Positions 1-16,682 of a stretch of 16,991 bases of DNA are shown piece after piece. The translations under genes were made by a program, and so were the position numbers. Under the pieces are notes generated by a model that saw only the letters and a program-made list of their open reading frames with translations, was not told where the DNA came from and did no database searches. The stretch is from a virus (lineage: Duplodnaviria; Heunggongvirae; Uroviricota; Caudoviricetes): the IMG/VR virus record IMGVR_UViG_2703718832_000008, positions 1 to 16,991 of that record; one strand, 5' to 3'. Position 1 is the stretch's first letter. The number at the start of each line of letters is the position of its first letter.

Positions 1-885
1 TTACTTTGCAATGAGATCGGGGTCAACTTCGCTAACCCGGCATCGTTTTGACCGGTTGCCCGTCTTTCTTTTTTTCACTTTCGCCAGTTCTTCCGCGGAG
101 TAATGCGACGCGACATCCAGCCGTCGAAGCCCCATTTTGATGTACTCGCTGTTGATCTCAATACCAATGAATTTTCGTCCGCTGGCGATGGCTACGGCAC
201 CGGTAGTAAAGCTACCGGCAAACGGGTCGAGAACGATATCGCCTGGGTTGGAAGAGGCGAGAATAATGCGTTTCAGTAAGGCTTCCGGTTTTTGCTTCGG
301 GTGGTTCTCATATTCATCCATTAAATAACGCACTCGCGGAAAATCCCAGACGTTACCCGGTACTTTTTGATGATTGTATGGCTGTGGAGGATTTTTGCGA
401 TAATCGATCAACGCGCGCTGCGATCCGGTTTTGGCTTCTACCAGAATAGCATCACCGTTGAATGTGTAGTTCTTTGCGTCTTTCACCATCATCAGGATGG
501 GTTCGTACATGGAGCCGTAGTGTTTTTTCGCCTGTACTCCAGAACTGTCATATGACCAGACGATGCGACTTTTGATGGTAAAAAGCTTGCGGCACTGGAG
601 ATCGATAAAGGGCATGTTTTCCGTACTGTTCATAATGTACATGCTGCCCTGCTTTTTCAGAACGCGGTGGCACTCTGCAATCACTTCAAACAGCCAGTCG
701 ATAAATAGATCTTCTTTCCAGGCTTCGATCAGACCATCAAAATTTTTACCGATGTTATACGGTGGGTCGGCAAAGATCAGATCGACGCTTTCAGTAGGTA
801 GCTTTTTAAGTTCGGCAAGGGCATCACCGTGAATAATGGTCTTAGCTTCATTACCAAACCGGGTCGGTTCACATCCTGTTCTCAT
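1..885 (-). CDS. yhdJ: DNA adenine (N6) methyltransferase YhdJ; complete, stop at window positions 1-3
   Basis: 294-aa ORF with the DPPY motif (FADPPYNIG) and a C-terminal FxGSFTTG S-adenosylmethionine-binding motif typical of N6-adenine/N4-cytosine methyltransferases; sequence matches my recollection of enterobacterial YhdJ. Start chosen at ATG 883-885 (MRTGCEP...) with AAGGGAG ribosome-binding site 6 nt upstream, rather than the GTG at 889-891 used by the ORF track. Confidence 0.9.
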   Translation of the reverse strand: MRTGCEPTRFGNEAKTIIHGDALAELKKLPTESVDLIFADPPYNIGKNFDGLIEAWKEDLFIDWLFEVIAECHRVLKKQGSMYIMNSTENMPFIDLQCRKLFTIKSRIVWSYDSSGVQAKKHYGSMYEPILMMVKDAKNYTFNGDAILVEAKTGSQRALIDYRKNPPQPYNHQKVPGNVWDFPRVRYLMDEYENHPKQKPEALLKRIILASSNPGDIVLDPFAGSFTTGAVAIASGRKFIGIEINSEYIKMGLRRLDVASHYSAEELAKVKKRKTGNRSKRCRVSEVDPDLIAK

Positions 886-909
886 GGTCACTCCCTTTGT
901 GACACCTAT

Positions 910-946
910 AAAAAAGGCGCTTCCCCATGCCGAGTAGCGCCTTTTT
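910..946 (-). terminator. Bidirectional intrinsic terminator hairpin (probable fis terminator)
   Basis: Perfect 11-bp inverted repeat AAAAAGGCGCT (911-921) / AGCGCCTTTTT (936-946) around a 14-nt loop, with an A-tract on one side and a T-tract on the other; lies just downstream of the fis stop-codon remnant when read on the minus strand. Confidence 0.7.
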
Positions 947-970
947 AATCAAGCATTTAGCTAACCTGAA

Positions 971-988
971 TTAGTTCATGCCGTACTG
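971..988 (-). other. fis: Remnant of the fis 3' end (Y-G-M-N-stop) marking the chromosome/island junction; putative attachment-site core
   Basis: Minus strand reads TGA CAG TAC GGC ATG AAC TAA. The last four codons plus stop match the Fis C-terminus (...KKYGMN) as I recall it, but an in-frame stop sits immediately upstream and the sequence beyond 988 is unrelated AT-rich DNA. Confidence 0.6.
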
Positions 989-1115
989 TCATATTAGCTG
1001 TTTTCATGCTTTTAGATGATTTTAATATTCATATAATAATCAATGTGTTGTATAAATTCATGCCTGTATATTGTTCCAGTGTTTTTCTTTGTTTATGCTA
1101 TTATGCAAGCAATTC

Positions 1116-1137
1116 TGTATAAACATTTGTATAAACA
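1116..1137 (+). repeat. Two direct copies of TGTATAAACA, 12-bp period, 20-40 bp upstream of int
   Basis: TGTATAAACA at 1116-1125 and 1128-1137 within the AT-rich int leader; possible integrase arm-type or regulator binding sites, or promoter elements. Confidence 0.35.
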
Positions 1138-1155
1138 CTTTGGGCTGGGTGGTCT

Positions 1156-2379
1156 ATGGCTGGCGAACTTAACAAACTGAGCGACAGGAAGTTAAAGGGA
1201 TTACATGGTATCCCGGCCAGTAAGATTGAGTTCTATGCTGATGGTGCCGGGCTGAGCGCCAAGGTAACGAAAGCTGGTGGTATTAGCTGGGTGTTTACTT
1301 ACCGACTCGACGGGCAGAAGCTGCATCGTCTTACTCTGGGACGATACCCGGATATGAGCCTCAAAGAAGCCCGTTCTTCGCGTGATAAATGCCGCCAATG
1401 GCTGGCCTCAGGTAAAGATCCAAAGCACCAGTTGGCGCTGGCCACTCAGGAAACGCTTAAACCGGTCACTGTTAAGGAAGCTATAGAATACTGGATACGC
1501 GAATATGCAGAAGAGAACCGCGCGAATGTTGAACGGCACAAAGCGGAGCTGCGAAAACACATTTATCCTTATATAGGGAAAATGGCGCTCGCTGACTGTG
1601 AAACACGATACTGGCTTGACTGCTTTGACAGGATGAAAAAGAAAACTCCAGTCGCCGCAGGTTATGTGTTCCAGATGTGCAAACAAGCCCTGAAATTCTG
1701 CCGGGTTCGTCGCTATGCTGTGAGTACCGCGCTTGAAGATTTAACAATTCCAGATGTCGGTAAAAAACAGGCAAAAAAAGACCGGGTATTAAACGATAAA
1801 GAGGCTGGCGATTTATGGGCTGCCATTTCCTCTGGCACTTGCTTCATGCCTTACTACACCAGGCTACTGACAATCTTAATGGTGTTTGGGTGCCGAACGC
1901 AGGAGGCCAGGCTATCAGAGTGGAGTGAATGGGATATGGATGCCTGGGTCTGGACAGTTCCCAAAGAGCACAGCAAGGGCGGCGAGAAGATTGTAAGACC
2001 TGTGCCGGATGCCATGCGCAAATTCATTGAAATACTGCATGATGAAACGAAACTATCCGGTCTTTTGCTTGGGTCGGTTAAAGGCAGTGAAGCGGTAAGC
2101 CAGTGGGGCCGTAGCGTTTATAAAAAGCTGGGACATTCTGAACCATGGACACTGCACGATCTAAGACGAACATTAGCAACGCATATGAATAATATGGGTA
2201 TAGCACCACACGTTGTTGAACAGTTGCTGGGGCACTCAATGCCGGGAGTCATGGCGATTTATAATCGCAGCCTGTACTTGCCTGAGAAACTGGATGCGCT
2301 GAATAAATGGTATGACCGTCTCGATATTTTGGCGGGTAATCACTCGAATATTGTTATTTTAAAGGCTGGTGAGAAATGA
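1156..2379 (+). CDS. int: Tyrosine site-specific integrase, P4-like family
   Basis: 407 aa; N-terminal arm-binding-like region, C-terminal catalytic region with HDLRRT and LLGHS...AIYNRSLY motifs (R..HxxR..Y catalytic pattern); GGGTGG ribosome-binding site upstream; placed at the island edge. Confidence 0.95.
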   Translation: MAGELNKLSDRKLKGLHGIPASKIEFYADGAGLSAKVTKAGGISWVFTYRLDGQKLHRLTLGRYPDMSLKEARSSRDKCRQWLASGKDPKHQLALATQETLKPVTVKEAIEYWIREYAEENRANVERHKAELRKHIYPYIGKMALADCETRYWLDCFDRMKKKTPVAAGYVFQMCKQALKFCRVRRYAVSTALEDLTIPDVGKKQAKKDRVLNDKEAGDLWAAISSGTCFMPYYTRLLTILMVFGCRTQEARLSEWSEWDMDAWVWTVPKEHSKGGEKIVRPVPDAMRKFIEILHDETKLSGLLLGSVKGSEAVSQWGRSVYKKLGHSEPWTLHDLRRTLATHMNNMGIAPHVVEQLLGHSMPGVMAIYNRSLYLPEKLDALNKWYDRLDILAGNHSNIVILKAGEK

Positions 2380-3164
2380 AAAAGATAAATAAAATGACCG
2401 ATTTGCCGAAATGGTTTTCATTGGACAATTACAATTCTATCAATGGGCTGAGTGATCTTGATTTAATTAATCAGTTAGCTATGAGAATGGAAGTTGCTAA
2501 TGATGATTTTGAATGGCTTGATACCTATCCCGGAGCAAGAAATGAGTTCGCTTCATTTATGGAAGAAAGATTTAGTAACCCAATTCGGCCGCTGAGCGGA
2601 AAATTATTTGCAGAAAAAATAAAAAGAAAAAAATATTCTGAATGGCAAATGGATTCCGTCGGAGGTGTTGAGCCTTTAAGATTAATTGATGTGATGCAGT
2701 TGTCTAAGAAAGCCGCTCATTATATTGATGAAAATAAAATTAATCGCTCATTGCGTGGACAAAAAAGGTCTGTAAGTAAGACCATAAGCGATAATGATCA
2801 AATGCACATTACTTTAGATTTGTCTTGGCCTGATGAAATTTTATTAAGCGATTTGGCTGCATTGTTGCCAATATGGCGAATGGATCTTGAAAGGAAAAGT
2901 GAAAATAGTTGTAAGTTAAGTAATAGCTGGAGTGTAATCAAAAAGAAAATATTCGATTACAAGATATTGCCAATGTTAGACCTTATGGAGTGGGCTAAAA
3001 TTAACAATGCAACAATCACTAACAGAGTTTTATCTTTGGCCCTATTTCCTAATGCAGAGTATGACGCCATTGGTATCGCTCAAACGATCAAACCGTTCAT
3101 TAGAAATTTTTCCGCAGATTTTTCTATAGAAATATTAAAGCGCAAAGCTATGGATTCATTTTAA
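2376..3164 (+). CDS. Hypothetical protein, AT-rich accessory gene translationally coupled to int
   Basis: 262-aa ORF whose ATG overlaps the int stop (ATGA). Visibly lower GC than the flanking genes, with several A-tracts. No recognisable catalytic motif by eye. Confidence 0.65.
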   Translation: MKKINKMTDLPKWFSLDNYNSINGLSDLDLINQLAMRMEVANDDFEWLDTYPGARNEFASFMEERFSNPIRPLSGKLFAEKIKRKKYSEWQMDSVGGVEPLRLIDVMQLSKKAAHYIDENKINRSLRGQKRSVSKTISDNDQMHITLDLSWPDEILLSDLAALLPIWRMDLERKSENSCKLSNSWSVIKKKIFDYKILPMLDLMEWAKINNATITNRVLSLALFPNAEYDAIGIAQTIKPFIRNFSADFSIEILKRKAMDSF

Positions 3165-3267
3165 TCGGGAAATCCATATAGAAATAATTAAAAATTATCT
3201 AATAGTGAACCATGCTTTTTAATAGCAAATAATAGCCTCCACAAAACGTAGAAACAGTGGAGGCAAC

Positions 3268-3552
3268 ATGCAAAATATCACCTTTACCCCGCCAAATCCT
3301 GAGCAGCGCCGCACCCTTTTAGAAGAGTACGGCTTTAAGTTCGACCGTCGAATTCGTGAAGAAGAATGTAGCGAGATCACCAGCCTTTCCCGTTCCAGCC
3401 GCTGGAAAATGGAGCAGCAAGGTCGATTCCCGCCACGCTGCCACTTTGGTCGTAACAGCTGCGCCTGGCTTCTTTCTGATGTGCTCTGGTGGGTTCGTAA
3501 TCCGCCTGCAGTAGAGAACGTCAATAACCCGTACAGCCGCAAATCTGCTTAA
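3268..3552 (+). CDS. alpA: AlpA-family phage transcriptional regulator (excisionase-like helix-turn-helix)
   Basis: 94 aa; region RIREEECSEITSLSRSSRWKMEQQGRFPPRCHFGRNSCAWLLSDVLWWV matches the AlpA/Vis-type helix-turn-helix as I recall it; GGAGG ribosome-binding site at 3259-3263. Confidence 0.88.
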   Translation: MQNITFTPPNPEQRRTLLEEYGFKFDRRIREEECSEITSLSRSSRWKMEQQGRFPPRCHFGRNSCAWLLSDVLWWVRNPPAVENVNNPYSRKSA

Positions 3553-3572
3553 TTAACTACAGGTAATAGAAT

Positions 3573-4379
3573 ATGGAAAAAATAACTGCCTTGGCTGGCA
3601 GCGGCCAAACTCAATCCGAAACCAGCCAGAAAGATATTTCCAGCGATAATTTTGCTGCGCGAATCCCTGTAACCATGAGCAAGATTGGCGGGAAAGAAAC
3701 CCAGTCTGTAAGCGGACGTAAGCTGCATACGTTTCTGGCTGTAGGGCGAGACTTTACCACCTGGATGAAAGCACGCATCAAACAGTATGGGTTTGTTAAA
3801 GGGGTTGATTATGTAATTGTTGAAGATTTGAGCACCCCAAAACGGGGGAGCGCAAAATCTCGCCAACAAGTCGAGCACGATTACATTGTTAGCCTGAATA
3901 TGGCTAAAGAGCTTTCTATGGTTGAGCGCAACGCGCAAGGCAAGATGGCCCGCCAGTATTTCATCGACTGTGAAGAACGTCTGCGCCGCGTAGCACCAGA
4001 GGAACATGAGGCGGCGTTGTTGGGCTGGCGTAAAAATCGTGTAGCTGCCTGCGAAGATCATAAGAGTATGGCCGATGCAATGAAGGGCTATATCGAGCGC
4101 ACCGGCGACAGGCAGCACGGCTTTGCCTACAGCAATGAATGCTCGTTCCTGAATAGCCTTGTGCTGGGTATGCACCCGCGAGTGTGGGCGAAACAGAAAG
4201 AAATCCCGGTTAAGCAGGTGCGTGACCATATGAACGCCGATCAGCTCGCGCTGCTGGCTTATCTGGAAAGCCGTGATTGTGCTCTGCTGGATCTTGATAC
4301 CCGTACAGCAACCCGTAAGGCGAAACTCACCGAACTGGCACAACGCTGGCTGGTGAAGCGTGTTGGAGGTGCTGAGTGA
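3573..4379 (+). CDS. Phage antirepressor-like protein (AntA/AntB N-terminal domain)
   Basis: 268 aa; segment SGRKLHTFLAVGRDFTTWMKARIKQYGFVKGVDYV fits the AntA-domain pattern (LH.FL.V...F..W...RI..YGF..G.DY). Only 20 bp downstream of alpA, so probably co-transcribed. The start could instead be the internal Met at about 3675. Confidence 0.7.
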   Translation: MEKITALAGSGQTQSETSQKDISSDNFAARIPVTMSKIGGKETQSVSGRKLHTFLAVGRDFTTWMKARIKQYGFVKGVDYVIVEDLSTPKRGSAKSRQQVEHDYIVSLNMAKELSMVERNAQGKMARQYFIDCEERLRRVAPEEHEAALLGWRKNRVAACEDHKSMADAMKGYIERTGDRQHGFAYSNECSFLNSLVLGMHPRVWAKQKEIPVKQVRDHMNADQLALLAYLESRDCALLDLDTRTATRKAKLTELAQRWLVKRVGGAE

Positions 4380-4539
4380 TTTTGCATAACTCAATCAGGG
4401 TTGCGCAGAATTTGAGCAGGCGAAATTCGCACGCGCAAATCAAGCTCGGTGATATGCCGAGTTTGAACAACCGCGTACGTTTAACGTACGGACATCGCAA
4501 CCCATTGAATCAATTTGATTATAACGAACCGTTAGAATT

Positions 4540-4730
4540 GGCGAGCAACAAACACGAACAGTATTCGGGTTCGCCTGAACATCAACACTGCTTAGGTTCG
4601 GCAATCATCTTTAAAGGATGTATCAAGGAAAATCAACAACGTGCAGTTGAGGTTCCAACGAATAACGTAGAGAGCTGCAATGGCAGCGCATTTTTGCTCT
4701 ACGAGGGAAATCAACAACGTACAGTTTTGT
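4540..4730. repeat. Four degenerate direct repeats (~30 bp units, consensus roughly ATCAACAACGTGCAGTTGAGGTTC) in a noncoding region
   Basis: Related units start near 4547, 4581, 4631 and 4710; the two best copies are AAATCAACAACGTGCAGTT (4629-4647) and AAATCAACAACGTACAGTT (4708-4726). Two CGTACG palindromes lie just upstream at 4472-4488. No convincing ORF on either strand. Confidence 0.5.
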
Positions 4731-4860
4731 ACCGTAATCCAAATTTGGCTTACGAGAGGGTAGTACCTCAAAGCCACCAGGTTAACCACGCCGCCAAAAG
4801 ATATGCGGAAAACAAACCCTCTTTAAGAGGGGGAGTCCAGCGTTTGTGCGGGTCATTATG

Positions 4861-4892
4861 TCCTGCGCAAAACAACCCCGAAATTATCGGGG
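4861..4892 (-). terminator. Intrinsic terminator for the minus-strand RHH gene
   Basis: 6-bp stem CCCCGA/TCGGGG with 5-nt loop (4876-4892), followed on the minus strand by TTGTTTTG; sits about 30 nt downstream of the RHH stop. Confidence 0.55.
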
Positions 4893-4923
4893 CAGTCCAC
4901 AGCATTACGGGGAGTAACCCTGT

Positions 4924-5115
4924 TCAGCCTTTTGGCTCGATGCCTTGTCGCAAAAGTTCTTTACGGGCAAGAGCCTTTAGCCAATTGCCAAGGCTCACGC
5001 CTTCCCGGCTGGCAGCCTCATTTAGCTGCTGGCGTAGTTCGGGTGTTATGCGGATCTGGAAGGTCGGTGACAAACCTTCACCTTTCGGAGTTTTATCTCT
5101 TTTGATAGTTGACAT
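4924..5115 (-). CDS. Small ribbon-helix-helix (Arc/CopG-like) DNA-binding protein, putative island regulator
   Basis: 63 aa starting at the internal ATG (5113-5115) with an AGGAG ribosome-binding site upstream on the minus strand; segment FQIRITPELRQQLNEAASREGVSLGNWLKALARKEL has the beta-strand/helix-helix pattern of RHH proteins. The N-terminal extension to 5229 in the ORF track looks non-coding. Confidence 0.6.
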   Translation of the reverse strand: MSTIKRDKTPKGEGLSPTFQIRITPELRQQLNEAASREGVSLGNWLKALARKELLRQGIEPKG

Positions 5116-5163
5116 GTACGTACGTAATCTCCTACTATGGATTCTGTTATGTACGTACGTTAT
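5114..5163. promoter_or_regulatory. Two 15-bp operator-like palindromic sites ATGTACGTACGT[A/T]AT in a divergent control region
   Basis: Copies at 5114-5128 and 5149-5163, centres 35 bp apart; the first contains the perfect 10-bp palindrome TACGTACGTA. They lie between the divergently oriented RHH gene and the HNH-AP2/primase operon. Confidence 0.5.
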
Positions 5164-5444
5164 CACGGCGCATGTAACAAAAGCAACGCCCCGGAGTGCG
5201 GGAACACTGCCGAGGCGTCTAACCACCAACGTTAATAGGAGTAACGCTATGGCTATGCCGCAGTGTAACCAAACTCATCCTAAAAATCGCGTATTTATCT
5301 TTTTGGCTTTAAATCGTGCCGACATGCAGAGCAGGCCACATCGTGAAGTTATTACCGCCGTCAGTGAGCGGGAAGCACGTAAGCTGCTAGTTGGCCGTTT
5401 TATTTTGGTTTTTGCAGGACGCTTACCAGCCAAGGAGATTTATC

Positions 5445-5954
5445 ATGGCTAAATTAACCAATAAATATTTAAAAGAAATTTTAGAATACAGCCCAGAATC
5501 TGGGGTGTTTATTTGGAAAGTTTGTCGTGGTACTACAAAGGCAGGGGATATAGCTGGCAGTATCAAAGTAAGAGGGTATTTAGATATTAAGATTAATAAG
5601 AAGCTATATAAGGCTCATAGGCTCGCATGGTTTTATATGTATGGAGTTTGGCCCGCTAATCTAATTGACCATATTAATGGTAATCGCAGTGATAATCGGT
5701 TGTGTAACTTGCGAGAGGCCACTCACAAAGAAAATTGCAGAAATCAAAGGATGTATAAAAATAACAAGTCAGGAGTAAAGGGAGTTAACTGGAATAAAAC
5801 AGGAAGAAAATGGCTGGCTGCGTGTGCTGTTGACGGGAAAAGATATCACCTAGGAATGTTTGAAGATATTTCAGAAGCAGAGAAAACTATTAAAGATTTT
5901 CGTGAGAAATATCATGGGGAATTCGCCAAGCATGAAGTGACCGGGGAGTTATAA
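5445..5954 (+). CDS. HNH endonuclease with C-terminal AP2 DNA-binding domain (homing-endonuclease-like)
   Basis: 169 aa from ATG 5445 (AAGGAG ribosome-binding site 7 nt upstream). HNH_3-type motif HRLAWFYMYGVWPANLIDHINGNRSDNRLCNLREAT, then AP2-like SGVKGVNWNKTGRKWLAACAVDGKRYHLGMFEDISEAEKT. Visibly AT-rich compared with downstream genes. Confidence 0.8.
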   Translation: MAKLTNKYLKEILEYSPESGVFIWKVCRGTTKAGDIAGSIKVRGYLDIKINKKLYKAHRLAWFYMYGVWPANLIDHINGNRSDNRLCNLREATHKENCRNQRMYKNNKSGVKGVNWNKTGRKWLAACAVDGKRYHLGMFEDISEAEKTIKDFREKYHGEFAKHEVTGEL

Positions 5955-5955
5955 A

Positions 5956-6150
5956 ATGCGTGAGCCAATCTGTCTGGAGCAGGCCGAATATAAATCAGCG
6001 CTGGCTTCATCACTTTACGAAACCATCCTGGAAAAAGCCTCTGCTGAATGTTCAGAAACGCTGCTGAATCTGATTTCTATTGCGTGTGATTTTAATCAGG
6101 AAATTCACCGGGCATTAATCGCCGAGCTGCACATGGGAGAGACAAAATGA
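5956..6150 (+). CDS. Hypothetical small protein (64 aa)
   Basis: ATG immediately after the upstream stop, with GGGGAG ribosome-binding site; first of three tightly coupled small ORFs leading into the primase gene. Confidence 0.5.
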   Translation: MREPICLEQAEYKSALASSLYETILEKASAECSETLLNLISIACDFNQEIHRALIAELHMGETK

Positions 6151-6353
6151 GACAGGTTCCTTTTGAGGTCCTGATGCACGCCGAAGACGCACTGGCATAC
6201 AGCAATCAGGCTCTGGCTATGCTGGAAATCTGGATGGACTCCCTCGGCGAAGGTGATGAACACGAATCTAACTGTGTGGCCGCCATTTTCAGCCTGGTGC
6301 ATGAGTCCAAAGATCGTCTACAGAAAGCGCGGGAGGCTTCCAGTGCAAAATGA
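6147..6353 (+). CDS. Hypothetical small acidic protein (68 aa)
   Basis: ATGA start/stop overlap with the previous ORF; GGGAGAG ribosome-binding site. Confidence 0.5.
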   Translation: MRQVPFEVLMHAEDALAYSNQALAMLEIWMDSLGEGDEHESNCVAAIFSLVHESKDRLQKAREASSAK

Positions 6354-6597
6354 CTTTGTAAGCGATGCGCGGCACGGGAAGCGCGGAGAGTTCAAATTGC
6401 CGCTGTTTTGTGAACTGACTGCAGAAGGGCAGAGTCACATCACCTTTGCCCTAAAGTTTGCCCCCGAGTCTGTGGCTGTGTTCCATCCCGATTCGGGAGA
6501 AATATCTCACTGGCTCAGCCGCGGAAACGAGATTATCGACATTTACGGTTGCTATGCCGTCTTTCCTCGCAATGGCATTAGGGAGGAACAGCAATGA
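6343..6597 (+). CDS. Hypothetical small protein (84 aa, GTG start)
   Basis: GTG at 6343 preceded by GGGAGG 6 nt upstream; overlaps the previous stop and ends in an ATGA overlap with the primase start. The ORF-track start at 6253 would run inside the previous gene and has no ribosome-binding site. Confidence 0.45.
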   Translation: MQNDFVSDARHGKRGEFKLPLFCELTAEGQSHITFALKFAPESVAVFHPDSGEISHWLSRGNEIIDIYGCYAVFPRNGIREEQQ

Positions 6598-9284
6598 GCC
6601 GCGCAATTGAGATTATCCGTGAAGTTAAGCGCCGAGCTGCCGGAAGCTGGGAAAGCCTACTTCCTCAGTGCGGGGTGACGGTTCCGCCGAAAGGCCGTCA
6701 CGGCCCATGCGCCATCTGTGGTGGATCTGACCGATTTCACTACATTGACGACCACGGCGGCGGCGAGTGGCATTGTCGCCAGTGTGACGAGCCAAATCAC
6801 GGCGACGGTCTGGATCTCATTGCCAGATCTCAGGGCATTACCATAACCGCTGCGGCGCAGAAAGTATCCTCTGTGCTGGGTGTTGATGCCCGGACACCGG
6901 AACCGAAGCCAGCCAGAGAGAAGCCTCAGACGGATATCGCCGGGAAAGTTGCGGCGCTGGTTGCTAAAGCCTCTCCGGGGCAGTCTGCTTACCTTGCATC
7001 AAAGGGGCTTCAATGCCCCTTCCCGATGCTGTCCGATGGGTCGCTGCTGCTGGTGCTGAAAAACGGTGCTGGCGCGACGACAGGCGCACAGGTGATTAAG
7101 CCAGATGGCAGTAAGCGGCTGGTGGCCGGAACGGTAAAGAAAGGCTCTTTTTGCGTGGTTAATTCCGGTGAAACGCCGGAGACGGTGATTATCGCCGAAG
7201 GACTGGCAACGGCGCTTTCGGTTCAGCAGTTTCGCCCAGATGCGACAATTATCACAGCGATTGACGCCGGGAATTTGCTGTCAGTTGCGCAGGTGATGCG
7301 ACAGCGTTACCCGGATGCGCAGATCATCATCGCCGCAGATAACGATATTAAGCCTGGCGAACCAAACACGGGTAAATCAGCCGCAGAAAAAACCGCTAAA
7401 GCTGTCTCTGGCTGGGTAGCTTTACCTCAGTCTGAGGAAAAGGCCGACTGGAATGATTTTCACCAGCAACACGGGCTGGAAGCAGCCGCAGCAGCATTTA
7501 ATGATTCGATGTACCAGCCGGAGGGCGAAAAGGTGGTGGTAAAACTTAAGTCTATTGACGGCGGTAAAAAAGAGCAAAAATCAGCTCTGCAAGGTGACGA
7601 ACTGAAACCACGCGTGGAGAGCCGTAACGATGGCTTGTACTGGATTACGCCAAAGGTGGACAAGGACAGCGGAGAAATCATCAATAACGAAGCGTGGCTT
7701 TGTTCGCCTCTTGAGGTAGTTGGTTCAGGTAGTGACGGGGCAGAACGCTATCTTGTTTTGCGCTGGCGTTCGCCGCGTGGCCACGAAGATATTACCAGGG
7801 CGATCCCTTGCGCTGATGTTGGAGAGCGTGAGGGATGGCGCTCACTTAAAGCTGGAGGGGTTAACGTGACCACTAAAAACACCTTTCGTGCCATTCTGGC
7901 CGATTGGCTGCAGCAGTGTGGATCTGGTCAGGAATGGATTATCACTCATACCACTGGCTGGCATAATGGGGCATATATCATGCCTGATGGCGAAGTTATT
8001 GGTGATCCAGAGACACCCATTCTCTTTAATGGTCGCAGCGCTGCATCTTCCGGTTATGCCGTTTCTGGTACGGCTGAGGGCTGGCGGGATTCAGTGGCTT
8101 ATCTGGCCGGTGGCAACCCATCAATGATGCTGGGAGTGGCGGCGGCATTATCCGCGCCGCTTATTGGGCTGGTGGGTGCTGATGGTTTCGGTGTCCACTT
8201 GTTCGAGCAGTCGAGCGCCGGTAAGACCACTACAGCTAATATTGCGAGCAGTCTGTGGGGAGAGCCGGATGCTCTGCGCCTAACGTGGTACGGTACTGCG
8301 CTTGGTATCGCTAACGAAGCGGAGGCGCATAACGACAGTCTGTTACCGCTGGATGAAGTGGGGCAGGGGAGCAGCGCCAAAGACGTTGCCACTTCGGCAT
8401 ACACCTTGTTTAACGGTGCTGGAAAGCTGCAGGGAGCCAAAGAGGGCGGCAATCGGGAGTTGAAACGTTGGCGCACTGTAGCAATCAGTACCGGGGAAAT
8501 GGATATCGAGACGTTTCTTTCTGCTGGTGGGCTAAAAGTTAAGGCAGGCCAGTTGGTTCGCCTGCTGAATATCCCTATGGAGAAATCGACGGCCTTTCAT
8601 GGCCTGCAGAACGGCAAGGCTCATGCTGATGCACTGAAGCAGGCATGGATTGAAAATCACGGTGCAGCGGGCCGAGAGTGGGTTAAATGGTTGGCGGCTC
8701 ACCAGAAGGAAGCTAAACAGGCCGTACATGACGCCCAGACGCGCTGGCGCGGACTCATTCCGGCTGATTATGGCGAGCAGGTGCACCGCGTGGCAGAACG
8801 CTTTGCAATCCTTGAAGCTGCGCTGGTGACTGGTGCATCAATCACCGGATGGGATGAACAGGCCAGCCGTGATGCTATCCAGCATAGCTTTAATGCCTGG
8901 GTGAAAGAGTTCGGAACGGGAAATAAAGAGCACCAGCAGATCATCGAGCAGTGCGAGGCGTTTCTTAATGCTTATGGTCTGAGCCGGTTCGCCCCTTTGC
9001 CTTATGATCCTGCAAGCCTGCCAATCAGTAATCTTGCCGGGTATCGTAAGCGTAAGAGCAACCATGATGATGCGCCCATGGTGTTCTATACATTCCCTGC
9101 AACGTTTGAGAAGGAGATAGCGCAGGGATTTAATGCTAGGCAGTTTGCCCGTGCGCTTGCCGCTGCCGGTTTGCTCTCTGAGCCATCAAGTGGGAGAGGA
9201 TATCAACAGAAATCACCGCGAATTGATGGGCGCCAAATCAACGTTTATGTACTTCAACAAGTTGCAGAAGAAGGGGCGGAATAA
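6594..9284 (+). CDS. Primase-helicase (zinc-ribbon + TOPRIM primase + P-loop NTPase domains)
   Basis: 896 aa. N-terminal Cys/His cluster (CAICGG...HCRQC); TOPRIM-like IIAEGLATALS and IIAADND; Walker A SSAGKTT and Walker B-like LLPLDEV in the C-terminal half. Sits immediately upstream of the iteron origin. Confidence 0.9.
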   Translation: MSRAIEIIREVKRRAAGSWESLLPQCGVTVPPKGRHGPCAICGGSDRFHYIDDHGGGEWHCRQCDEPNHGDGLDLIARSQGITITAAAQKVSSVLGVDARTPEPKPAREKPQTDIAGKVAALVAKASPGQSAYLASKGLQCPFPMLSDGSLLLVLKNGAGATTGAQVIKPDGSKRLVAGTVKKGSFCVVNSGETPETVIIAEGLATALSVQQFRPDATIITAIDAGNLLSVAQVMRQRYPDAQIIIAADNDIKPGEPNTGKSAAEKTAKAVSGWVALPQSEEKADWNDFHQQHGLEAAAAAFNDSMYQPEGEKVVVKLKSIDGGKKEQKSALQGDELKPRVESRNDGLYWITPKVDKDSGEIINNEAWLCSPLEVVGSGSDGAERYLVLRWRSPRGHEDITRAIPCADVGEREGWRSLKAGGVNVTTKNTFRAILADWLQQCGSGQEWIITHTTGWHNGAYIMPDGEVIGDPETPILFNGRSAASSGYAVSGTAEGWRDSVAYLAGGNPSMMLGVAAALSAPLIGLVGADGFGVHLFEQSSAGKTTTANIASSLWGEPDALRLTWYGTALGIANEAEAHNDSLLPLDEVGQGSSAKDVATSAYTLFNGAGKLQGAKEGGNRELKRWRTVAISTGEMDIETFLSAGGLKVKAGQLVRLLNIPMEKSTAFHGLQNGKAHADALKQAWIENHGAAGREWVKWLAAHQKEAKQAVHDAQTRWRGLIPADYGEQVHRVAERFAILEAALVTGASITGWDEQASRDAIQHSFNAWVKEFGTGNKEHQQIIEQCEAFLNAYGLSRFAPLPYDPASLPISNLAGYRKRKSNHDDAPMVFYTFPATFEKEIAQGFNARQFARALAAAGLLSEPSSGRGYQQKSPRIDGRQINVYVLQQVAEEGAE

Positions 9285-9308
9285 AATACACATGTGAGGA
9301 TTGTTATT

Positions 9309-9601
9309 GTTGGTTCAGTTGGTTCAATGATTGTTAATTACATTCATGTTACTGTTTTACATAGGGTTTATGTCTAATAATTGAACCAACACTGAACCAA
9401 CAAACGGCTATTTTGAACCAACATGTTCCGCTATTGAACCAACCCCCTTTTCTGGCTGGCCTGTAAATATTTGCCACTGAACCAACATAAAAATAGCATT
9501 TGTTGGTTCAAAAAGGGGCTTTGTTAGTTCACTTAATGAAAATAATGCCTTTAAAAACAATAATCTTTACAAATTGAACCAACTGAACTGACTGAACCAA
9601 C
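9309..9601. repeat. Replication origin: iteron array of TGAACCAAC (about 7 direct and 3 inverted copies) plus AT-rich stretch
   Basis: Direct copies at 9382-9390, 9393-9401, 9414-9422, 9435-9443, 9478-9486, 9575-9583 and 9593-9601; inverted copies GTTGGTTCA at 9310-9318, 9319-9327 and 9502-9510; AT-rich segment 9538-9573. Located directly downstream of the primase-helicase gene. Confidence 0.75.
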
Positions 9602-9638
9602 ATAGTTTTGCATCTATACACAAAAAATAGAGGATGTT

Positions 9639-9941
9639 ATGGACAAAAAAAGCAGTGATGACCTGGTATATTCGAAGGTGCTGATCCAGAAAGTGGTTGA
9701 GCACAAAGATATGTTTGGGGTTCCAGACAGCAAAACGGATTTGCAGCTTATGCCGCTTAGCGAATACCGGGAACTGGTGAAGCGAGAAGCTTTCTTTTTT
9801 GTGGATCACAATGGTTTCCTGCGCCATCAATTTTCTGGTGATGTTATGGCTGCCAGCAAAGAACAACTGGATATCCTTATCGGCGAATTGAAAGCGAAGC
9901 GTGAGCTGCTTGATGATGCTCTGGATTGCGCTAAGGAATAA
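9639..9941 (+). CDS. Hypothetical protein (100 aa) downstream of the origin
   Basis: ORF with GAGGA-like ribosome-binding site; acidic, helical-looking C-terminus; no recognisable family by eye. Confidence 0.5.
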   Translation: MDKKSSDDLVYSKVLIQKVVEHKDMFGVPDSKTDLQLMPLSEYRELVKREAFFFVDHNGFLRHQFSGDVMAASKEQLDILIGELKAKRELLDDALDCAKE

Positions 9942-9978
9942 TTTTGTAAATTATTTGTACTCATGTTTACCCGTGATT

Positions 9979-10003
9979 ACCCCTGTCTCTGATGGGGGTT
10001 TTC
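9979..10003 (+). terminator. Weak intrinsic terminator candidate
   Basis: CCCC/GGGG stem with 10-nt loop followed by TTTTCTTT, about 40 nt after the preceding stop codon. Confidence 0.3.
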
Positions 10004-10173
10004 TTTATATTTTTCATGTATATCTTGAAGAGTGGCACTCAGACGTGAGCCGCCACTGGCCGTTAAGTCAAGCTGTAGCGAGTACAGCCTGCGAGAGGCA
10101 GAAAAAGATTTAACGGCCTCCCCTCCAAGCGCTGGTTTCACGTCTCTACGTTAATTGATACGGAAACCACTCC

Positions 10174-11340
10174 ATGAAGAAACTACTCGAATTACGCCAG
10201 CAGAAAGCCGCACTCAAAACACAGATGCGTTCCATGCTGGACAAAGCCGACACCGAAAAGCGCAGCCTGAACGAAGAAGAGGGCAAAAAGTTCGACGAAC
10301 TCCGCGCCCAGGCTGATGCGCTTGAAGTTGAAATCACCCGCCTTGAAGCCGTCGCCGACGATCAGCGCAATCTGCCTGGTACTTCCGTCGAAGGTGAGCC
10401 AGTAAGCAACGACGAGCTGCGCCACTACATCATGACAGGTGATACCCGTTCTCTCTCCACGCTGGTGCAGGCTGACGGCGGTTATACCGTTATCCCTGAG
10501 CTGGACAAAGAGATTATGCGCCAGTTGCAGGATGATAGCGTGATGCGTTCCATCGCAACGGTGAAGACCACCAAAACCAACGAATACCAGAAGCTGGTAT
10601 CTGTGGGCGGCACTACTGTTAATCGTGGTACCGAAGGTGAGGCACGTACCGAAACCAGTACGCCGAAGATGGAGCGCGTTGATATCAAACTCAACCCGAT
10701 CTACGCCTACCCGAAAACCACTCAGGAGATTCTCGACTTCTCTGAGGTGGACATTCTGGGCTGGCTGTCTTCTGAAATCGCCGACACCTTCACCGCTACC
10801 GAAGAGAGCGACTTTGTGAACGGCGACGGTGATAAAAAATCCAAAGGGTTCCTGTCTTACCCTCGCGCTGTCACTGCCGACAAAACCCGTCCGTTCGGTA
10901 CGCTGGAGAAGATGGAGGCGGCTGACGTTTCCTCTGATGGCCTGATCGACCTGCTGTATAAGCTGAAAGCCAAATACCGCAAAAACGCCGTATGGGTGAT
11001 GAACTCCAACACCGCCGCCAAACTGCAAAAGCTGAAAAACGGCAACGGAGATTACATCTGGCGCGATCGTCTGGTTGCCGGTTCTCCCGATACGCTGCTG
11101 GGCCGTCCTGTTCAGTATCTGGAAACCATGCCGGATGCGGATGCAGGTAAAGCGTTCCTCGCGGTAGGCGACTTCAAGCGCGGCTATTTCATCGTGGATC
11201 ACACCACTGGCGTGCGTACCCGTCCTGACAACATCACCGAACCGGGTTTCTACAAGGTGCATACCGATAAGTACCTGGGCGGCGGTGTGGTGGACTCCAA
11301 CGCCATCAAGGTGCTTGAGCTTTCAGGCTCCGGTTCCTGA
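10174..11340 (+). CDS. Major capsid protein, HK97 fold, with N-terminal coiled-coil (delta/scaffold-like) domain
   Basis: 388 aa; N-terminal roughly 100 residues are charged and coiled-coil-like, the remainder resembles HK97-family major capsid proteins; the long antisense ORF 10192..11262 is a shadow. Confidence 0.92.
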   Translation: MKKLLELRQQKAALKTQMRSMLDKADTEKRSLNEEEGKKFDELRAQADALEVEITRLEAVADDQRNLPGTSVEGEPVSNDELRHYIMTGDTRSLSTLVQADGGYTVIPELDKEIMRQLQDDSVMRSIATVKTTKTNEYQKLVSVGGTTVNRGTEGEARTETSTPKMERVDIKLNPIYAYPKTTQEILDFSEVDILGWLSSEIADTFTATEESDFVNGDGDKKSKGFLSYPRAVTADKTRPFGTLEKMEAADVSSDGLIDLLYKLKAKYRKNAVWVMNSNTAAKLQKLKNGNGDYIWRDRLVAGSPDTLLGRPVQYLETMPDADAGKAFLAVGDFKRGYFIVDHTTGVRTRPDNITEPGFYKVHTDKYLGGGVVDSNAIKVLELSGSGS

Positions 11341-11350
11341 TTTGACGTTT

Positions 11351-11372
11351 AAGGGGCTGCGGCCCCTTTTTG
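11351..11372 (+). terminator. Intrinsic terminator/attenuator immediately after the capsid gene
   Basis: GC-rich hairpin AAGGGGC-TGCG-GCCCCTT followed by a T-run, 10 nt after the capsid stop and 20 nt before the protease start. Confidence 0.6.
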
Positions 11373-11391
11373 CCCTCTGTGGAGTCCAGTA

Positions 11392-11952
11392 ATGAAAACA
11401 ATTGATTTTGAAATCCGTACTTCCGAAGTGAGCGCCAGCAACAAAAAGCTGGTGGGCTATGCCGTGCGCTGGAACAGCCTGTCAGAAGTTATCTGGGATG
11501 AGTTCCGCGAACAGTTTGCGCCGGGAGCGTTTAAAGACAGCCTGGCATCCGGTAGCGATGTGCGTGCGCTGTATGAGCATAACTATACCCAGCTGCTGGG
11601 CCGCACTAAATCCGGCACGCTGGTGCTGTCCGAAGACGATACCGGGCTGCGCTTCGAGCTGACTCCGCCGAATACCCAGCTTGGCAACGATGTGCTGGAG
11701 CTGGTGGAGCGCGGGGATATCTCCGGCATGAGCTTTGGTTTCCGGGCGCTGAAAGAGGCGTGGGATATTGCTCAGTCTCCATATCTGCGCACTGTTACCG
11801 CTGCCGAACTGCGGGAGATTACCGTTACCTCTATGCCTGCTTATCCTGAGTCTGGCGTGGAAATCGCGCACCGTTCGCTTTTCTCCCAACATCCTGAACT
11901 GCGCCGCGCTGGCGATAACCGTCGCCGCTGGGCTGATTTAGCGGGGCTCTGA
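11392..11952 (+). CDS. Prohead protease, HK97 family
   Basis: 186 aa; resembles HK97-family prohead proteases (segments ALYEHN...LLGRT and LRFEL); GGAG ribosome-binding site. Confidence 0.9.
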   Translation: MKTIDFEIRTSEVSASNKKLVGYAVRWNSLSEVIWDEFREQFAPGAFKDSLASGSDVRALYEHNYTQLLGRTKSGTLVLSEDDTGLRFELTPPNTQLGNDVLELVERGDISGMSFGFRALKEAWDIAQSPYLRTVTAAELREITVTSMPAYPESGVEIAHRSLFSQHPELRRAGDNRRRWADLAGL

Positions 11953-11953
11953 T

Positions 11954-13189
11954 ATGTGGAATATCTGGCCGTTTGGCCGTAAGTCTGAACCCTCAGAGCA
12001 GCGCAGCATGACCATTGATGAATTTCTGGCGATGGCAGGGATTCCAAATACCGGATCAGGCGAGTATGTGTCTGCGGGTACTGCGGAATCTCTGCCGGCG
12101 GTCATGAACGCCGTATCAGTTATCAGTGAGGCGGTGGCAACAATGCCCTGCTATCTCTACCGCGTCCGTAATGATAATGGTCGTGAGGCGCGAGAATGGC
12201 TGAGTAATCACCCGGTGGATTTTCTCCTGAACGAGCAGCCGAACGACTGCCAGACGCCTTATCAGTTTAAACGCACGATGATGCGCCATTGTCTGCTGAA
12301 TGGTAACGCCTATGCGGTGATCCAGTGGGGCCGCGACGGCCAGCCGCAATCCCTGCACCCGTATGCGCCGGGGGCGGTTGTTCCTGAGCGTATCGGCCAG
12401 CATAAGTACAAATACACCGTTACAGAGCCGTTTACCGGGGCTGTGCGCACCTATCTACAGGAAGAGATTCTGCACCTGCGTTACTCCACCGATGATGGCT
12501 TTCTGGGGCGTTCGCCTATTACTACGTGCCGTGAGGCGCTGGGGTTAGGTCTGGCCCAACAGCGCCACGGTGCCAGCATTATGAAAGATGGCATGATGGC
12601 GGCGGGCGTCGTCACTACTGCTGAATGGCTCGACAGCGTGAAGGGTAAGCAGGCTCTGGACGCACTGGAGCGCTACAAAGGTGCCAGAAATGCCGGGAAA
12701 ACGCCGATCCTTGAAGGTGGCATGGACTACAAGCAGCTTGGCATGAGCAATCAGGATGCCGAATGGCTGGCGTCGCGCCGGTTCTCCATTGAAGACATTG
12801 CCCGCATGTTCAACGTGTCGCCCATCTTCCTGCAGGAATACAGCAACAGCACCTACAGCAATTTCAGCGAAGCGAGCCGCGCCTTTCTCACCATGACCAT
12901 GCGCCCGTGGCTGGCGAACTTCGAGCAACAAATCAAATCTGCTTTGCTGGTGGCCTCTCCGGTTCCGGGAACCCGTTATCAGGTGGAGTTTGACTCTGCT
13001 GACCTTCTCCGTGCCACACCTACCGAGCGTTACGCCACTTATGAGCGAGGCATTAAGAACGGGATCATGAACCCGAACGAAGCCCGTGAGCGCGAGGGGA
13101 TGCCGCCGCGTGAAGGTGGTGACGAATTCAGCCAGGCATGGAAGCAGGAAGTGAAGATCAGCAAAGACGGCAAGGAAGGTGACGCATGA
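11954..13189 (+). CDS. Portal protein, HK97 family
   Basis: 411 aa; start 1 nt after the protease stop; size and sequence character consistent with HK97-type portal proteins. Confidence 0.9.
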   Translation: MWNIWPFGRKSEPSEQRSMTIDEFLAMAGIPNTGSGEYVSAGTAESLPAVMNAVSVISEAVATMPCYLYRVRNDNGREAREWLSNHPVDFLLNEQPNDCQTPYQFKRTMMRHCLLNGNAYAVIQWGRDGQPQSLHPYAPGAVVPERIGQHKYKYTVTEPFTGAVRTYLQEEILHLRYSTDDGFLGRSPITTCREALGLGLAQQRHGASIMKDGMMAAGVVTTAEWLDSVKGKQALDALERYKGARNAGKTPILEGGMDYKQLGMSNQDAEWLASRRFSIEDIARMFNVSPIFLQEYSNSTYSNFSEASRAFLTMTMRPWLANFEQQIKSALLVASPVPGTRYQVEFDSADLLRATPTERYATYERGIKNGIMNPNEAREREGMPPREGGDEFSQAWKQEVKISKDGKEGDA

Positions 13190-13524
13190 GAGCCGGGGGG
13201 CTGAGAAGCCGCGTCACTATTCGGGTATTCACTACCCACAGGGAGCCGTCCGGTCAGGTTGTTCAGGTCTGGGAAGACGGGGAAACCATATGGGCTGAGG
13301 TTAAGGGGATCAGTGGCCGAGAGTTAATGGCGTCAGGTGCCGAGGTTGCCGAAGCGACGATCCGCGTTTGGGTGCGTTTCCGCCGTGATATTACCGCAGC
13401 CAACCGTCTGAAAGTGCTTACTGGCCCGTTTGCTGGCAGCACTCTCAATATTATCGGGCCTCCTATTCCTGATTCGGAAGGTACCCGGCTGGAAATTCTC
13501 TGCAAGACAGGAACGGAAAAATGA
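13186..13524 (+). CDS. Head closure / head-tail adaptor protein
   Basis: 112 aa; ATGA overlap with the portal gene; resembles phage head-closure proteins and sits in the expected head-completion position. Confidence 0.75.
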   Translation: MRAGGLRSRVTIRVFTTHREPSGQVVQVWEDGETIWAEVKGISGRELMASGAEVAEATIRVWVRFRRDITAANRLKVLTGPFAGSTLNIIGPPIPDSEGTRLEILCKTGTEK

Positions 13525-13814
13525 CAGCAGAAATCACCCTGGAAGAAGCAAAGCTGCATTGCCGTATTGATGATGATTATGAAGACACGCTGATACAGGC
13601 GTACATCGATGCGGCGCTGGAGGTTTGCCAGAAGCATATCGGCAAGCGGTTTGATAACGGGCTGGAGTTTACGCCAGCTATCAAGATTGGCTGTCTGATG
13701 TACGTATCTCAGCTGTACGAGTACCGCACGATGATTGGTGATACCGACGCCAAAGAGATACCGATGGCTGTCTCTGCGTTGTGGTCTGTCTATCGTGATG
13801 TGGGGGTGTACTGA
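13521..13814 (+). CDS. gp6-like head-tail connector protein
   Basis: 97 aa; N-terminus ITLEEAKLHCRIDDDYEDTLIQAYIDAA is the usual signature of gp6-like connector proteins; ATGA overlap upstream. Confidence 0.85.
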   Translation: MTAEITLEEAKLHCRIDDDYEDTLIQAYIDAALEVCQKHIGKRFDNGLEFTPAIKIGCLMYVSQLYEYRTMIGDTDAKEIPMAVSALWSVYRDVGVY

Positions 13815-14257
13815 TGCCGTGGCAACCACTACGCCGGTGCAATGAGCCGGGATGTAATAAACGGGTGAAGTCTGGCAAGTGTGACGAGCATAAGCGGGAT
13901 GCCCGCCGACAAAGCGACAGCCGAAGAGGTACGCGAACAGAGCGTGGTTACTCCAACCGCTGGGGCGAATACCGTCGTCATTTTCTAAAAGCTAATCCGC
14001 TGTGTGTCCATTGTCTCAAGGCTGGCGTCTATGCATCGGCAACTATCGTCGATCACATCATCCCTATCGAGGGTGAAGCTGATGTGCTGTTCTGGCCCGC
14101 CAGTAATCACCAGTCGTTATGCGCTGCCTGTCATGGACGGAAGACAACCACAACAGACCCGGTGACGAAGCAGCAGCGTAAAGCCGGTAAGTTCCGCGAG
14201 CAGGAAGAAGCAGCACGTCATCGCACCGACTGGATCTATGAGGCAAACAATGACTGA
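13814..14257 (+). CDS. HNH endonuclease associated with the terminase
   Basis: 147 aa; Cys-rich N-terminus, HNH motif DHIIPIEGEAD...NHQSLCAACH; located directly upstream of terS as in cos-type HK97-like packaging modules. Confidence 0.9.
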   Translation: MPWQPLRRCNEPGCNKRVKSGKCDEHKRDARRQSDSRRGTRTERGYSNRWGEYRRHFLKANPLCVHCLKAGVYASATIVDHIIPIEGEADVLFWPASNHQSLCAACHGRKTTTTDPVTKQQRKAGKFREQEEAARHRTDWIYEANND

Positions 14258-14402
14258 GCAGGAACAGCAGCGGCTGATTAGTGGGCTGATAAAGCAGCGC
14301 GAGGCATGGCAACCAGCCAGACAGAGAGCGCATAAGAAGCCCGTAGCAAAGCGCATGAGCCAGCGTGACCGGGAGCTTATGGAATGCTTTCGCAACCGCT
14401 GA
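14250..14402 (+). CDS. Possible small basic protein (50 aa); uncertain
   Basis: ATG overlaps the HNH stop by 8 nt; the ORF is below the length cut-off of the supplied track; product is Q/R/K-rich; no supporting motif. Confidence 0.3.
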   Translation: MTEQEQQRLISGLIKQREAWQPARQRAHKKPVAKRMSQRDRELMECFRNR

Positions 14403-14409
14403 CAGGCCG

Positions 14410-14530
14410 AATGGACGGGGTGGGGGAGGTTTTCAGGACAAACCCCTCTCAGCGAGGAACCACCCGCCCCCTCAAATTTTTACGCACGGTGATTTTTTTG
14501 AAAATAAAACAGACAGGAAAACAGTAAGTT
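14410..14530. other. Candidate cos / packaging-recognition region between HNH and terS
   Basis: GC-rich G-tract GGGGTGGGGGAGG (14417-14429) and C-tract CCACCCGCCCCCTC (14460-14473) with partial dyad symmetry, followed by T-runs; cos-type phages with HNH-TerS-TerL place cos here. Confidence 0.4.
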
Positions 14531-14887
14531 ATGGCAAGACCACCCAAACCGCCCGCCTACCTTGATGAAATCGCGGCGCAGCAGTGGAAAGCAAAGGCGA
14601 AGCAGCTGGCGGAGCGCGGTGATCTGACGCCTGCCGACTGGAACAACCTTGAGCTGTATTGCGTCAATTACTCGATGTACCGCAAAGCCGTGGAAGACCT
14701 TGCCACGCGGGGATTCAGCATAGTGAACAGCCAGGGCGGTGAGAGCCGTAACCCGGCACTGAGCGCAAAAGCGGATGCCGAAAAAATTCTCATAAAAATG
14801 TCGTCGCTGCTGGGCTTTGATCCGGTAAGCCGCCGCCGTAATCCGGTAGAAACGGAAGAGGAGGACGAGCTTGACCGTCTGGAATGA
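14531..14887 (+). CDS. terS: Terminase small subunit, P27 family
   Basis: 118 aa; N-terminus MARPPKPPAYLDEIAAQQWK and overall size match P27-family small terminases. Confidence 0.85.
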   Translation: MARPPKPPAYLDEIAAQQWKAKAKQLAERGDLTPADWNNLELYCVNYSMYRKAVEDLATRGFSIVNSQGGESRNPALSAKADAEKILIKMSSLLGFDPVSRRRNPVETEEEDELDRLE

Positions 14888-16532: not shown

Positions 16533-16682
16533 GCATAAAGCGTAAAGGCAGAATTATCTTGAGGTTATCAGGAATATAAAATTGCTCTAGATCACTACAT
16601 TGCTGTCGTGGAATAGGAAGAGTCTGTTTTGTTGTTTATAAATGTATTGCAGGGCTTTTCCTGTTCAAACTTCTGGTGAAAT

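Follow-up and report, generated by a model that had tools for sequence, protein, structure and literature searches.

In the immI operon of P1, which consists of c4 RNA, icd and ant, translation of icd is needed for downstream transcription. For the satellite P4, Forti and colleagues reportedly showed in 1999 that translation of the eta gene prevents Rho-dependent termination. The eta open reading frame (ORF) of P4 occupies 8168..8767 on the minus strand; its start, ATGATGATG, lies on the stop codon of vis, it spans the promoter PLE and the CI RNA, and it ends as kil. The passage of PMC10111431 that summarises Forti et al. (1999, J Bacteriol 181:5225) presents kil as a truncated form made from an internal constitutive promoter. 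In the same passage, the upstream late promoter alone gives translation of full-length eta, in translational coupling to the alpA homologue, and this translation prevents termination, so that late transcripts read through (PMC10111431). In phage-inducible chromosomal islands that form capsids (cf-PICIs), induction requires alpA, which the helper phage turns on (10.1101/2022.09.08.507074). Here we describe an interval of 544 bp (4380-4923), reaching from the stop codon of the antirepressor gene antA to that of a convergent ribbon-helix-helix (RHH) regulator gene, in a 16,991-nucleotide stretch of DNA (IMG/VR virus record IMGVR_UViG_2703718832_000008, positions 1 to 16,991; hereafter the window). 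This interval probably forms the 5' half of an ORF of the eta type.

The ORF map, Pfam matches and synteny identified the window as a cf-PICI or P4-like satellite: int, alpA, a primase gene and its own HK97 capsid, protease, portal and terminase genes are found together in an island of 15-17 kb. Syntenic islands are present in Escherichia coli chromosomes and in the induced element vB_KppS-Ant.

Results

No conventional gene was found in the interval (the gap). Neither Pfam nor PHROG returned a family match for the gap translation, and the region carries no annotation in the E. coli relatives, in agreement with an earlier note on this DNA that was made from the sequence alone. That note had also pointed to a stop-free frame of 358 codons (4376..5452, plus strand), running antisense through the RHH gene (4924-5115), and had set it aside. 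We confirmed this frame, here called the bridge ORF. It contains no stops, compared with 9-20 in each of the five other frames over the same stretch, so the earlier judgement that it is unlikely to have arisen by chance was correct. The frame that had been passed over is nevertheless the feature under selection, as its openness is kept and stops are absent.

The bridge ORF begins with a GTG at 4376 that overlaps the antA stop (GTGA). A Shine-Dalgarno sequence, GGAGG (4365..4369, plus strand), is located 6 nt 5' of this start, within the last codons of antA. From the stop-start overlap and the ribosome-binding site we infer translational coupling from antA into the ORF. The frame continues through the gap, antisense through the RHH gene and across the promoter and leader of icd, and enters without a change of frame an Icd/Kil-like gene (5249..5452, plus strand) that is nested at its 3' end. 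The NCBI model NF033153 (phage_ICD_like) matches residues 306-351 of the product, and the N-terminal 290 amino acids remained unmatched in Pfam and PHROG. Extension of antA by read-through or frameshifting was excluded as an explanation of the open frame, as a TGA at 4373-4375 closes the ORF frame immediately before the GTG. A gene on the minus strand was excluded as well; the minus frames hold 9-15 stops. Each of the 16 loci checked has a Shine-Dalgarno-like motif ahead of the start codon of the ORF, and in 16/16 the start overlaps or closely follows the upstream stop; this arrangement was found behind three unrelated upstream genes and also in distant genera.

Comparison with P4 and P1

Like P4 eta, the window ORF starts at the stop codon of the upstream gene, spans the (predicted) promoter before icd, where P4 has the constitutive promoter PLE, and ends as a Kil/Icd-like gene in the same frame. 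NF033153 matches P4 Eta as well (residues 146-193), the N-terminal part is again unlike a protein, and the order alpA/vis, eta, kil, primase is common to both elements. The activation of alpA by a helper phage would fit a late transcript that starts upstream of alpA.

There are also clear differences. The window ORF has 358 codons, against approximately 200 for P4 eta, and appears to be coupled to antA and not directly to the alpA homologue. It contains the whole antisense RHH gene and an array of minus-strand terminators, both of which are lacking in P4. Conversely, no C4 or isrK RNA (CI and seqA in P4) is located inside it: the Rfam models C4 and isrK gave no match in the window or in 12 relatives, whereas the P4 positive control was detected with 74.9 and 60.8 bits, respectively. 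The P4-type RNA immunity that had been suggested for this region was therefore not found. Homology to Ash (PF10554, phrog_6928) was absent from the N-terminal 290 amino acids of the window ORF, with phrog_6928 matched through the Icd-like end only; P4 Eta matched PF10554 with E = 3.8e-23 and phrog_6928 with E = 6e-89. The window has the eta/kil architecture but, judged by these matches, is not a sequence member of the family.

The locus shares with immI of P1 an Icd-family gene, whose translation state decides downstream transcription in P1, and a nearby antirepressor gene. However, icd precedes ant in P1 and is controlled by a trans-acting, sense-strand c4 RNA. In the window antA precedes the ORF, C4 is not matched, and the candidate RNA is a cis-antisense element (see below).

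Conservation of the open frame in relatives

The first clue came from the closest E. coli island, in which the same frame is also open: the indels that separate it from the window measure 48, 30, 24 and 3 nt, each a multiple of three. The frame was open in all seven IMG/VR relatives, in four E. coli islands and in vB_KppS-Ant. In these relatives it sets out at the upstream gene's stop, crosses a gap of 276-585 nt, passes at least three different regulator genes in antisense orientation and then traverses the promoter region. Among them the ORF ends in three ways: it runs in frame into icd, overlaps the start of icd in an ATGA, or stops 10 nt short of that start. A protein search yielded 137 predicted proteins, mostly of approximately 300 amino acids, from Klebsiella, Enterobacter, Salmonella, Citrobacter and Escherichia; some of these are named Icd-like by NCBI.

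For an unbiased sample, loci were retrieved through Icd homology alone, with one genome per species, which gave 16 loci with upstream sequence. The icd frame was stop-free for 224-356 codons upstream of icd in 11 of the 16, with 4-23 stops in each of the other five frames. Four further loci had an ORF of 220-410 codons in another frame bridging the same region. The gap sequences of many of these loci are unrelated. In the Pectobacterium loci (L025-L027, approximately 3135-4364), icd is crossed by the bridge ORF in another frame, and the ORF then joins the following gene without a frame change; here the frame stays open even though it is not the icd frame.

Selection on the frame and not on the peptide

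Substitutions were analysed in 14 distinct family members. Variable columns were distributed evenly over codon positions 1, 2 and 3 (61, 57 and 62), showing no codon periodicity. The ratio of non-synonymous to synonymous differences (pN/pS) was 0.76 for the bridge ORF, compared with 0.90 and 0.80 for two out-of-frame controls. The neighbouring antA gene was under strong purifying selection, with pN of 0.002-0.027 and pS of 0.075-0.128, and the divergence of the gap was about that of antA pS. At least 208 substitutions had accumulated without creating a single stop, where approximately 12 would be expected (P ~5e-6), given that about 5% of random substitutions would make one. Gap length was a multiple of three in 16/16 loci, and 214 of 287 gap runs in nucleotide-level pairwise alignments were multiples of three; modules of 9-42 codons have been gained or lost whole among relatives. 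AlphaFold, with an alignment of 36 sequences, gave a mean predicted local distance difference test score (pLDDT) of 43, with residues 20-234 below 50 and values of approximately 30-54 over the gap-encoded residues. Neither the synonymous excess that marks purifying selection on a protein-coding gene nor a predicted fold was found for the bridge ORF, and the earlier impression that its translation is not protein-like was borne out. The even codon positions, the pN/pS ratios, the absent stops, the in-frame lengths and the lack of a fold together provide strong comparative evidence that the frame is selected to stay open while the sequence of the peptide is unconstrained.

The same data bear on the possibility that the ORF encodes a functional long isoform of Icd. 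Such a protein would resemble Eta, and the sequence of its N-terminal region, disordered and fast-evolving, would matter. The ORF shares the frame of icd in the window and in most relatives, some long forms bear the name Icd-like at NCBI, and gene callers predict products of approximately 300 amino acids in the 137 clusters. We nonetheless regard such an isoform as unlikely. The pN/pS of the ORF is no different from that of the out-of-frame controls, codon periodicity and a confident fold are lacking, no Pfam or PHROG family covers its N-terminal part, and whole modules of the region come and go. Moreover, the fusion to Icd is not conserved, since the ORF stops at the icd start in L001, L006, L008 and L011 and is out of frame past icd in L025-L027.

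Hairpins and repeats in the gap

The gap is the most hairpin-rich region of the 17 kb. It folds far more stably than shuffled sequence (z = -6.8 for the plus and -4.3 for the minus strand), and of the eight 200-nt windows with z < -3, six are located within 4301-5200. The other two plus-strand windows with z < -3 (10001-10200 and 12001-12200) are near the start of the capsid gene and the protease/portal junction. Unrelated gaps in other genera are hairpin-rich as well (z ~ -2 to -8). Terminator-like hairpins were enriched on one strand in particular: over 16 loci their density per kb was 4.4 on the minus strand of the gap, 1.15 on its plus strand and 0.64 in flanking DNA.

Downstream of the RHH gene, on the minus strand, two terminator-like hairpins follow directly behind the stop codon. 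These are CCCTCTTAAAGAGGG followed by TTTGTTTTCC (4817..4831) and GCCCCGATAATTTCGGGGT followed by TGTTTTGCGC (4875..4893). The first makes up half of a repeat, D1, whose copies (4804-4839 and 4864-4899) are 72% identical and form two hairpins whose stems differ. Indel modules and hairpins fall at the same places, as in the 27-nt CTCGG...CCGAG unit of the window (4441..4467, minus strand; core CTCGGTGATATGCCGAG at 4445-4461), a terminator-like, single in-frame unit that is present or absent among relatives. In L010 a 54-nt insertion is a textbook minus-strand terminator. Hairpins are gained and lost as modules, and only in lengths that keep the plus-strand frame open. Two larger in-frame modules were found on the plus strand, one of 48 nt (16 codons; 4600..4647), restricted to the window and a few relatives, and one of 126 nt (42 codons; 4679..4804), present in the window, L001, L005 and L006 and missing from most relatives. 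Predictions gave no plus-strand terminator from alpA up to the ORF start and no promoter within the gap. In L003, L012, L017-L021 and L024, a strong minus-strand terminator is located in the first 40-60 nt of the bridge ORF, just past the upstream stop (one such terminator is AGGCGGCCCGGCATGGCCGCCT with TTTGTTTT after it); its plus-strand translation is the conserved peptide KTKAA.PGR.

The 48-nt module holds the first copy of a direct repeat, D2 (AGGAAAATCAACAACGTGCAGTT, 4626..4648, plus strand). The second copy (AGGGAAATCAACAACGTACAGTT, 4704..4726, plus strand) is located 78 nt (26 codons) downstream. The copies are 23 nt long and 91% identical, so that the near-identical pair reported earlier exists; D2 is a local duplication, in frame and missing from most relatives. 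The four related units of approximately 30 bp described in the earlier note resolved instead into two separate two-copy repeats, D1 and D2, and Tandem Repeats Finder detected no tandem array.

An origin of replication with iterons was excluded, as the 5' module is common to islands whose replicases differ, some having a primase and L004 a RepA helicase, and the would-be iterons amount to one two-copy duplication that is missing in most relatives. A cos or pac packaging site was considered unlikely: vB_KppS-Ant was deposited as a linear record beginning at terS, the ends of a record being no proof of physical ends.

Could the hairpins belong to a structured regulatory RNA, either an immunity RNA or a small RNA on one of the strands? 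The stability of the fold, the concentration of hairpins at this location and their recurrence in the unrelated gaps of other genera would all suit such an RNA. Rfam, however, returned nothing in the gap when the whole window was searched at gathering thresholds and 4300-5500 at E ≤ 10, C4 and isrK included, although both detect P4. Of 38 predicted pairs in the 5' module none showed a compensatory change, a result with limited power given the low variation there, and in some variants pairs are disrupted. The sequence has diverged about as fast as the synonymous sites of antA, its hairpins are lost and gained as whole modules, and no promoter is predicted inside the gap to transcribe it. A structured RNA would also leave the open frame and the in-frame indels unexplained, and we consider it quite improbable.

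The palindrome and the regulator

The RHH gene (HicB / YlcI-YnfO-like; 63 amino acids; 4924..5115, minus strand) is enclosed entirely by the bridge ORF, which runs on the opposite strand. In 16/16 loci the antisense regulator has relative phase 2, in which third codon positions are opposite each other; across the regulator these loci have 0 stops in the ORF frame and 1-6 in the two other plus frames. Upstream of icd a sigma-70 promoter-like site (TTGACA, 18 nt, TACTAT; 5109..5138, plus strand; a match to consensus only) is present inside the bridge ORF, corresponding in position to PLE of P4. Its -35 hexamer and the start region are overlapped by two operator-like direct repeats, ATGTACGTACGTWATC (5114-5129 and 5149-5164), which were found only in loci carrying the window-type RHH.

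Within the gap, the palindrome CGTACGTTTAACGTACG (4474..4490; 17 nt, 7-bp stem, 3-nt loop) contains CGTACG at 4474-4479 and 4485-4490. The CGTACG pair had been noticed before, at positions off by 2 nt. The overlapping site ATGTCCGTACGTTA (4482-4495, minus strand) differs from the promoter repeats at 1 of 14 positions. This raises the possibility that the palindrome is a distal operator, at which RHH would act by DNA looping to the two promoter operators approximately 630 bp away. Three such sites are present where 0.09 would be expected, and all four CGTACG copies of the 17 kb are located in these two clusters, the other two copies being within the RHH/icd promoter region. Still, the gap site does not co-vary with the regulator, because it is kept in loci with unrelated YlcI-type or other RHH regulators and without matching promoter operators. 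It is also a plain hairpin, and where variants are missing the 27-nt module it is scored as a terminator on the minus strand. We thus think it very doubtful that the palindrome is an operator, and the array of regulator-binding sites proposed earlier was not supported.

The terminators could also mean that the gap is simply a terminator or insulator spacer between convergent genes, with the open frame incidental. Minus-strand terminator-like hairpins are approximately 7-fold over background, and two of them stand directly behind the RHH stop. The gap resembles tandem intrinsic terminators placed between convergent genes, in that hairpins with U-tracts stand on the minus strand right after the RHH stop and further terminator-like ones lie toward antA. 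The array in the window differs in sitting within an ORF on the opposite strand, and each of its modules keeps the ORF frame. A mere spacer would hardly remain free of stops for 224-356 codons in at least eight unrelated sequence families while the other frames collect 4-23, nor escape the approximately 12 stops expected from the observed substitutions. Its indels would not need to be in frame, and the ribosome-binding sites, the stop-start overlaps and the fixed phase of the antisense gene would not need to be conserved. An incidental frame is highly improbable. Finally, that the gap is left over from a known gene through decay or frameshifting, another of the earlier proposals, can practically be dismissed, as the expected stops and frameshifts are exactly what is missing and the gap translation matches no Pfam, NCBIfam or PHROG family.

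A conserved antisense element at the icd start

Outside the interval, a conserved structured element was found on the minus strand at 5170..5262, antisense to the leader, Shine-Dalgarno sequence and start codon of icd. It consists of three helices and ends in a terminator (hairpin 5182-5211 plus U-tail). Over 18 loci, 93.3% of the cells were paired and 12 of 20 pairs showed compensatory changes; 0/500 shuffles reached these values, and slid controls had 35-51% paired. The minus strand is the structured one, because 59 G-U cells were counted on this strand versus 2 on the plus strand, and plus-strand pairing was just 77.4%. A weak match to SymR (27.6 bits, E = 0.0085) was obtained, far under the Rfam gathering score of 61. 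The element is a candidate cis-antisense regulator of icd translation. As in the SymR/symE type of cis-antisense small RNAs, it overlaps the ribosome-binding site and start, here those of icd, but its score stays far below the gathering threshold. If it is a cis-antisense regulator, it would be the functional counterpart of the P4 CI RNA, and a bypass role for the bridge ORF would become more plausible.

Neighbouring genes

On the plus strand upstream of the interval are the integrase gene (1156-2379; ORF map), a gene for a DUF6387 protein (2376-3164; Pfam match), the AlpA-family regulator gene (3268-3552; Pfam match) and antA (AntA antirepressor; 3573-4379; Pfam match). The primase gene (6594-9284; ORF map) and the HK97-type capsid, protease, portal and terminase genes are also on the plus strand. 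The Rfam int-alpA RNA (RF02996, 51 bits) is located between int and alpA in L002 (3761-3827), L008 (790-856) and L010 (760-826); RF02996 was undetected in the window. Directly 3' of icd and overlapping its end, an ORF at 5445-5951 (plus strand) has an HNH_3 and a weak AP2 domain. It is similar to homing endonucleases and is missing from this position in the E. coli relatives.

Discussion

We consider it probable that the interval makes up the 5' half of a bridge ORF of the eta type, superimposed on a stack of hairpins. The sequence features reported in the earlier note were real, and its account was partly supported; their interpretation has changed to this ORF. Its architecture, the conservation of the open frame, the unconstrained peptide and the enrichment of minus-strand hairpins could be read from the sequences themselves, and a role in translation and anti-termination would follow from analogy with P4.

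On this reading, a helper phage would switch on the upstream alpA-antA operon, and ribosomes would couple from antA into the bridge ORF. They would follow RNA polymerase over approximately 1 kb that is otherwise untranslated, shielding the transcript from Rho and melting the hairpins. In spite of the local repression system, late transcription could then extend to icd, the primase gene and the packaging genes, and it would probably interfere with how the convergent RHH gene is expressed. Many of the hairpins may act on the other strand, in the resting state, as one-way intrinsic terminators, halting leftward RHH transcripts before they run antisense into antA, alpA and int.

Several observations weigh against this explanation. 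Shigella flexneri L029 (3845-4177) has no long ORF upstream of icd (52 codons); it is the sole such locus among the Icd-sampled loci, and its island may be degraded. A few database variants (P0112 and P0119) are cut by a frameshift. Because family members are related, counts within the family are not fully independent, and it is L014, L019-L024 and L028, with their unrelated gap sequences, that carry the argument. Inside the bridge ORF, in the 126-nt module, there is a weak terminator-like hairpin on the plus strand (4674-4687), and terminators explain the hairpin richness of both strands only partly. The gap shows no rut-like skew of C over G, and a consensus scan found no upstream late promoter, although activator-dependent promoters are usually missed by such scans. 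Translation of the ORF and dependence on Rho are themselves steps that we infer.

More tentatively, the locus may represent a two-layer switch of enterobacterial cf-PICIs and P4-like satellites that has not been described before, in which repression in the resting state is overridden upon induction by the bridge ORF. At rest, the replication operon would be held off by two agents, a repressor protein of the RHH or YlcI type and a cis-antisense RNA on the icd ribosome-binding site. Upon induction, an ORF of 250-420 codons that serves translation only would thread the one-way terminator array and cross the repressor gene in antisense, the codon phase between the two being fixed. Late transcription escorted by ribosomes would then override both layers, and the repressor would be silenced by convergent transcription. 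The eta/kil principle itself is known from P4; what is new is a variant of it combined with a one-way terminator array.

Conclusions

The bridge ORF would account for an "empty" interval that recurs across a widespread phage satellite family, and for the disagreement of gene callers over this region, some records showing a hypothetical or Icd-like protein of approximately 300 amino acids and others nothing. A long stop-free frame that lacks codon periodicity and is open in every relative should neither be annotated as a protein nor be dismissed as noise. An ORF selected only for its openness points to the act of translation, and not its product, as the function, and suggests a testable route from helper-induced alpA transcription to the replication and packaging genes. 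If this is true, the principle of P4 eta extends to elements in which a protein repressor replaces RNA immunity.

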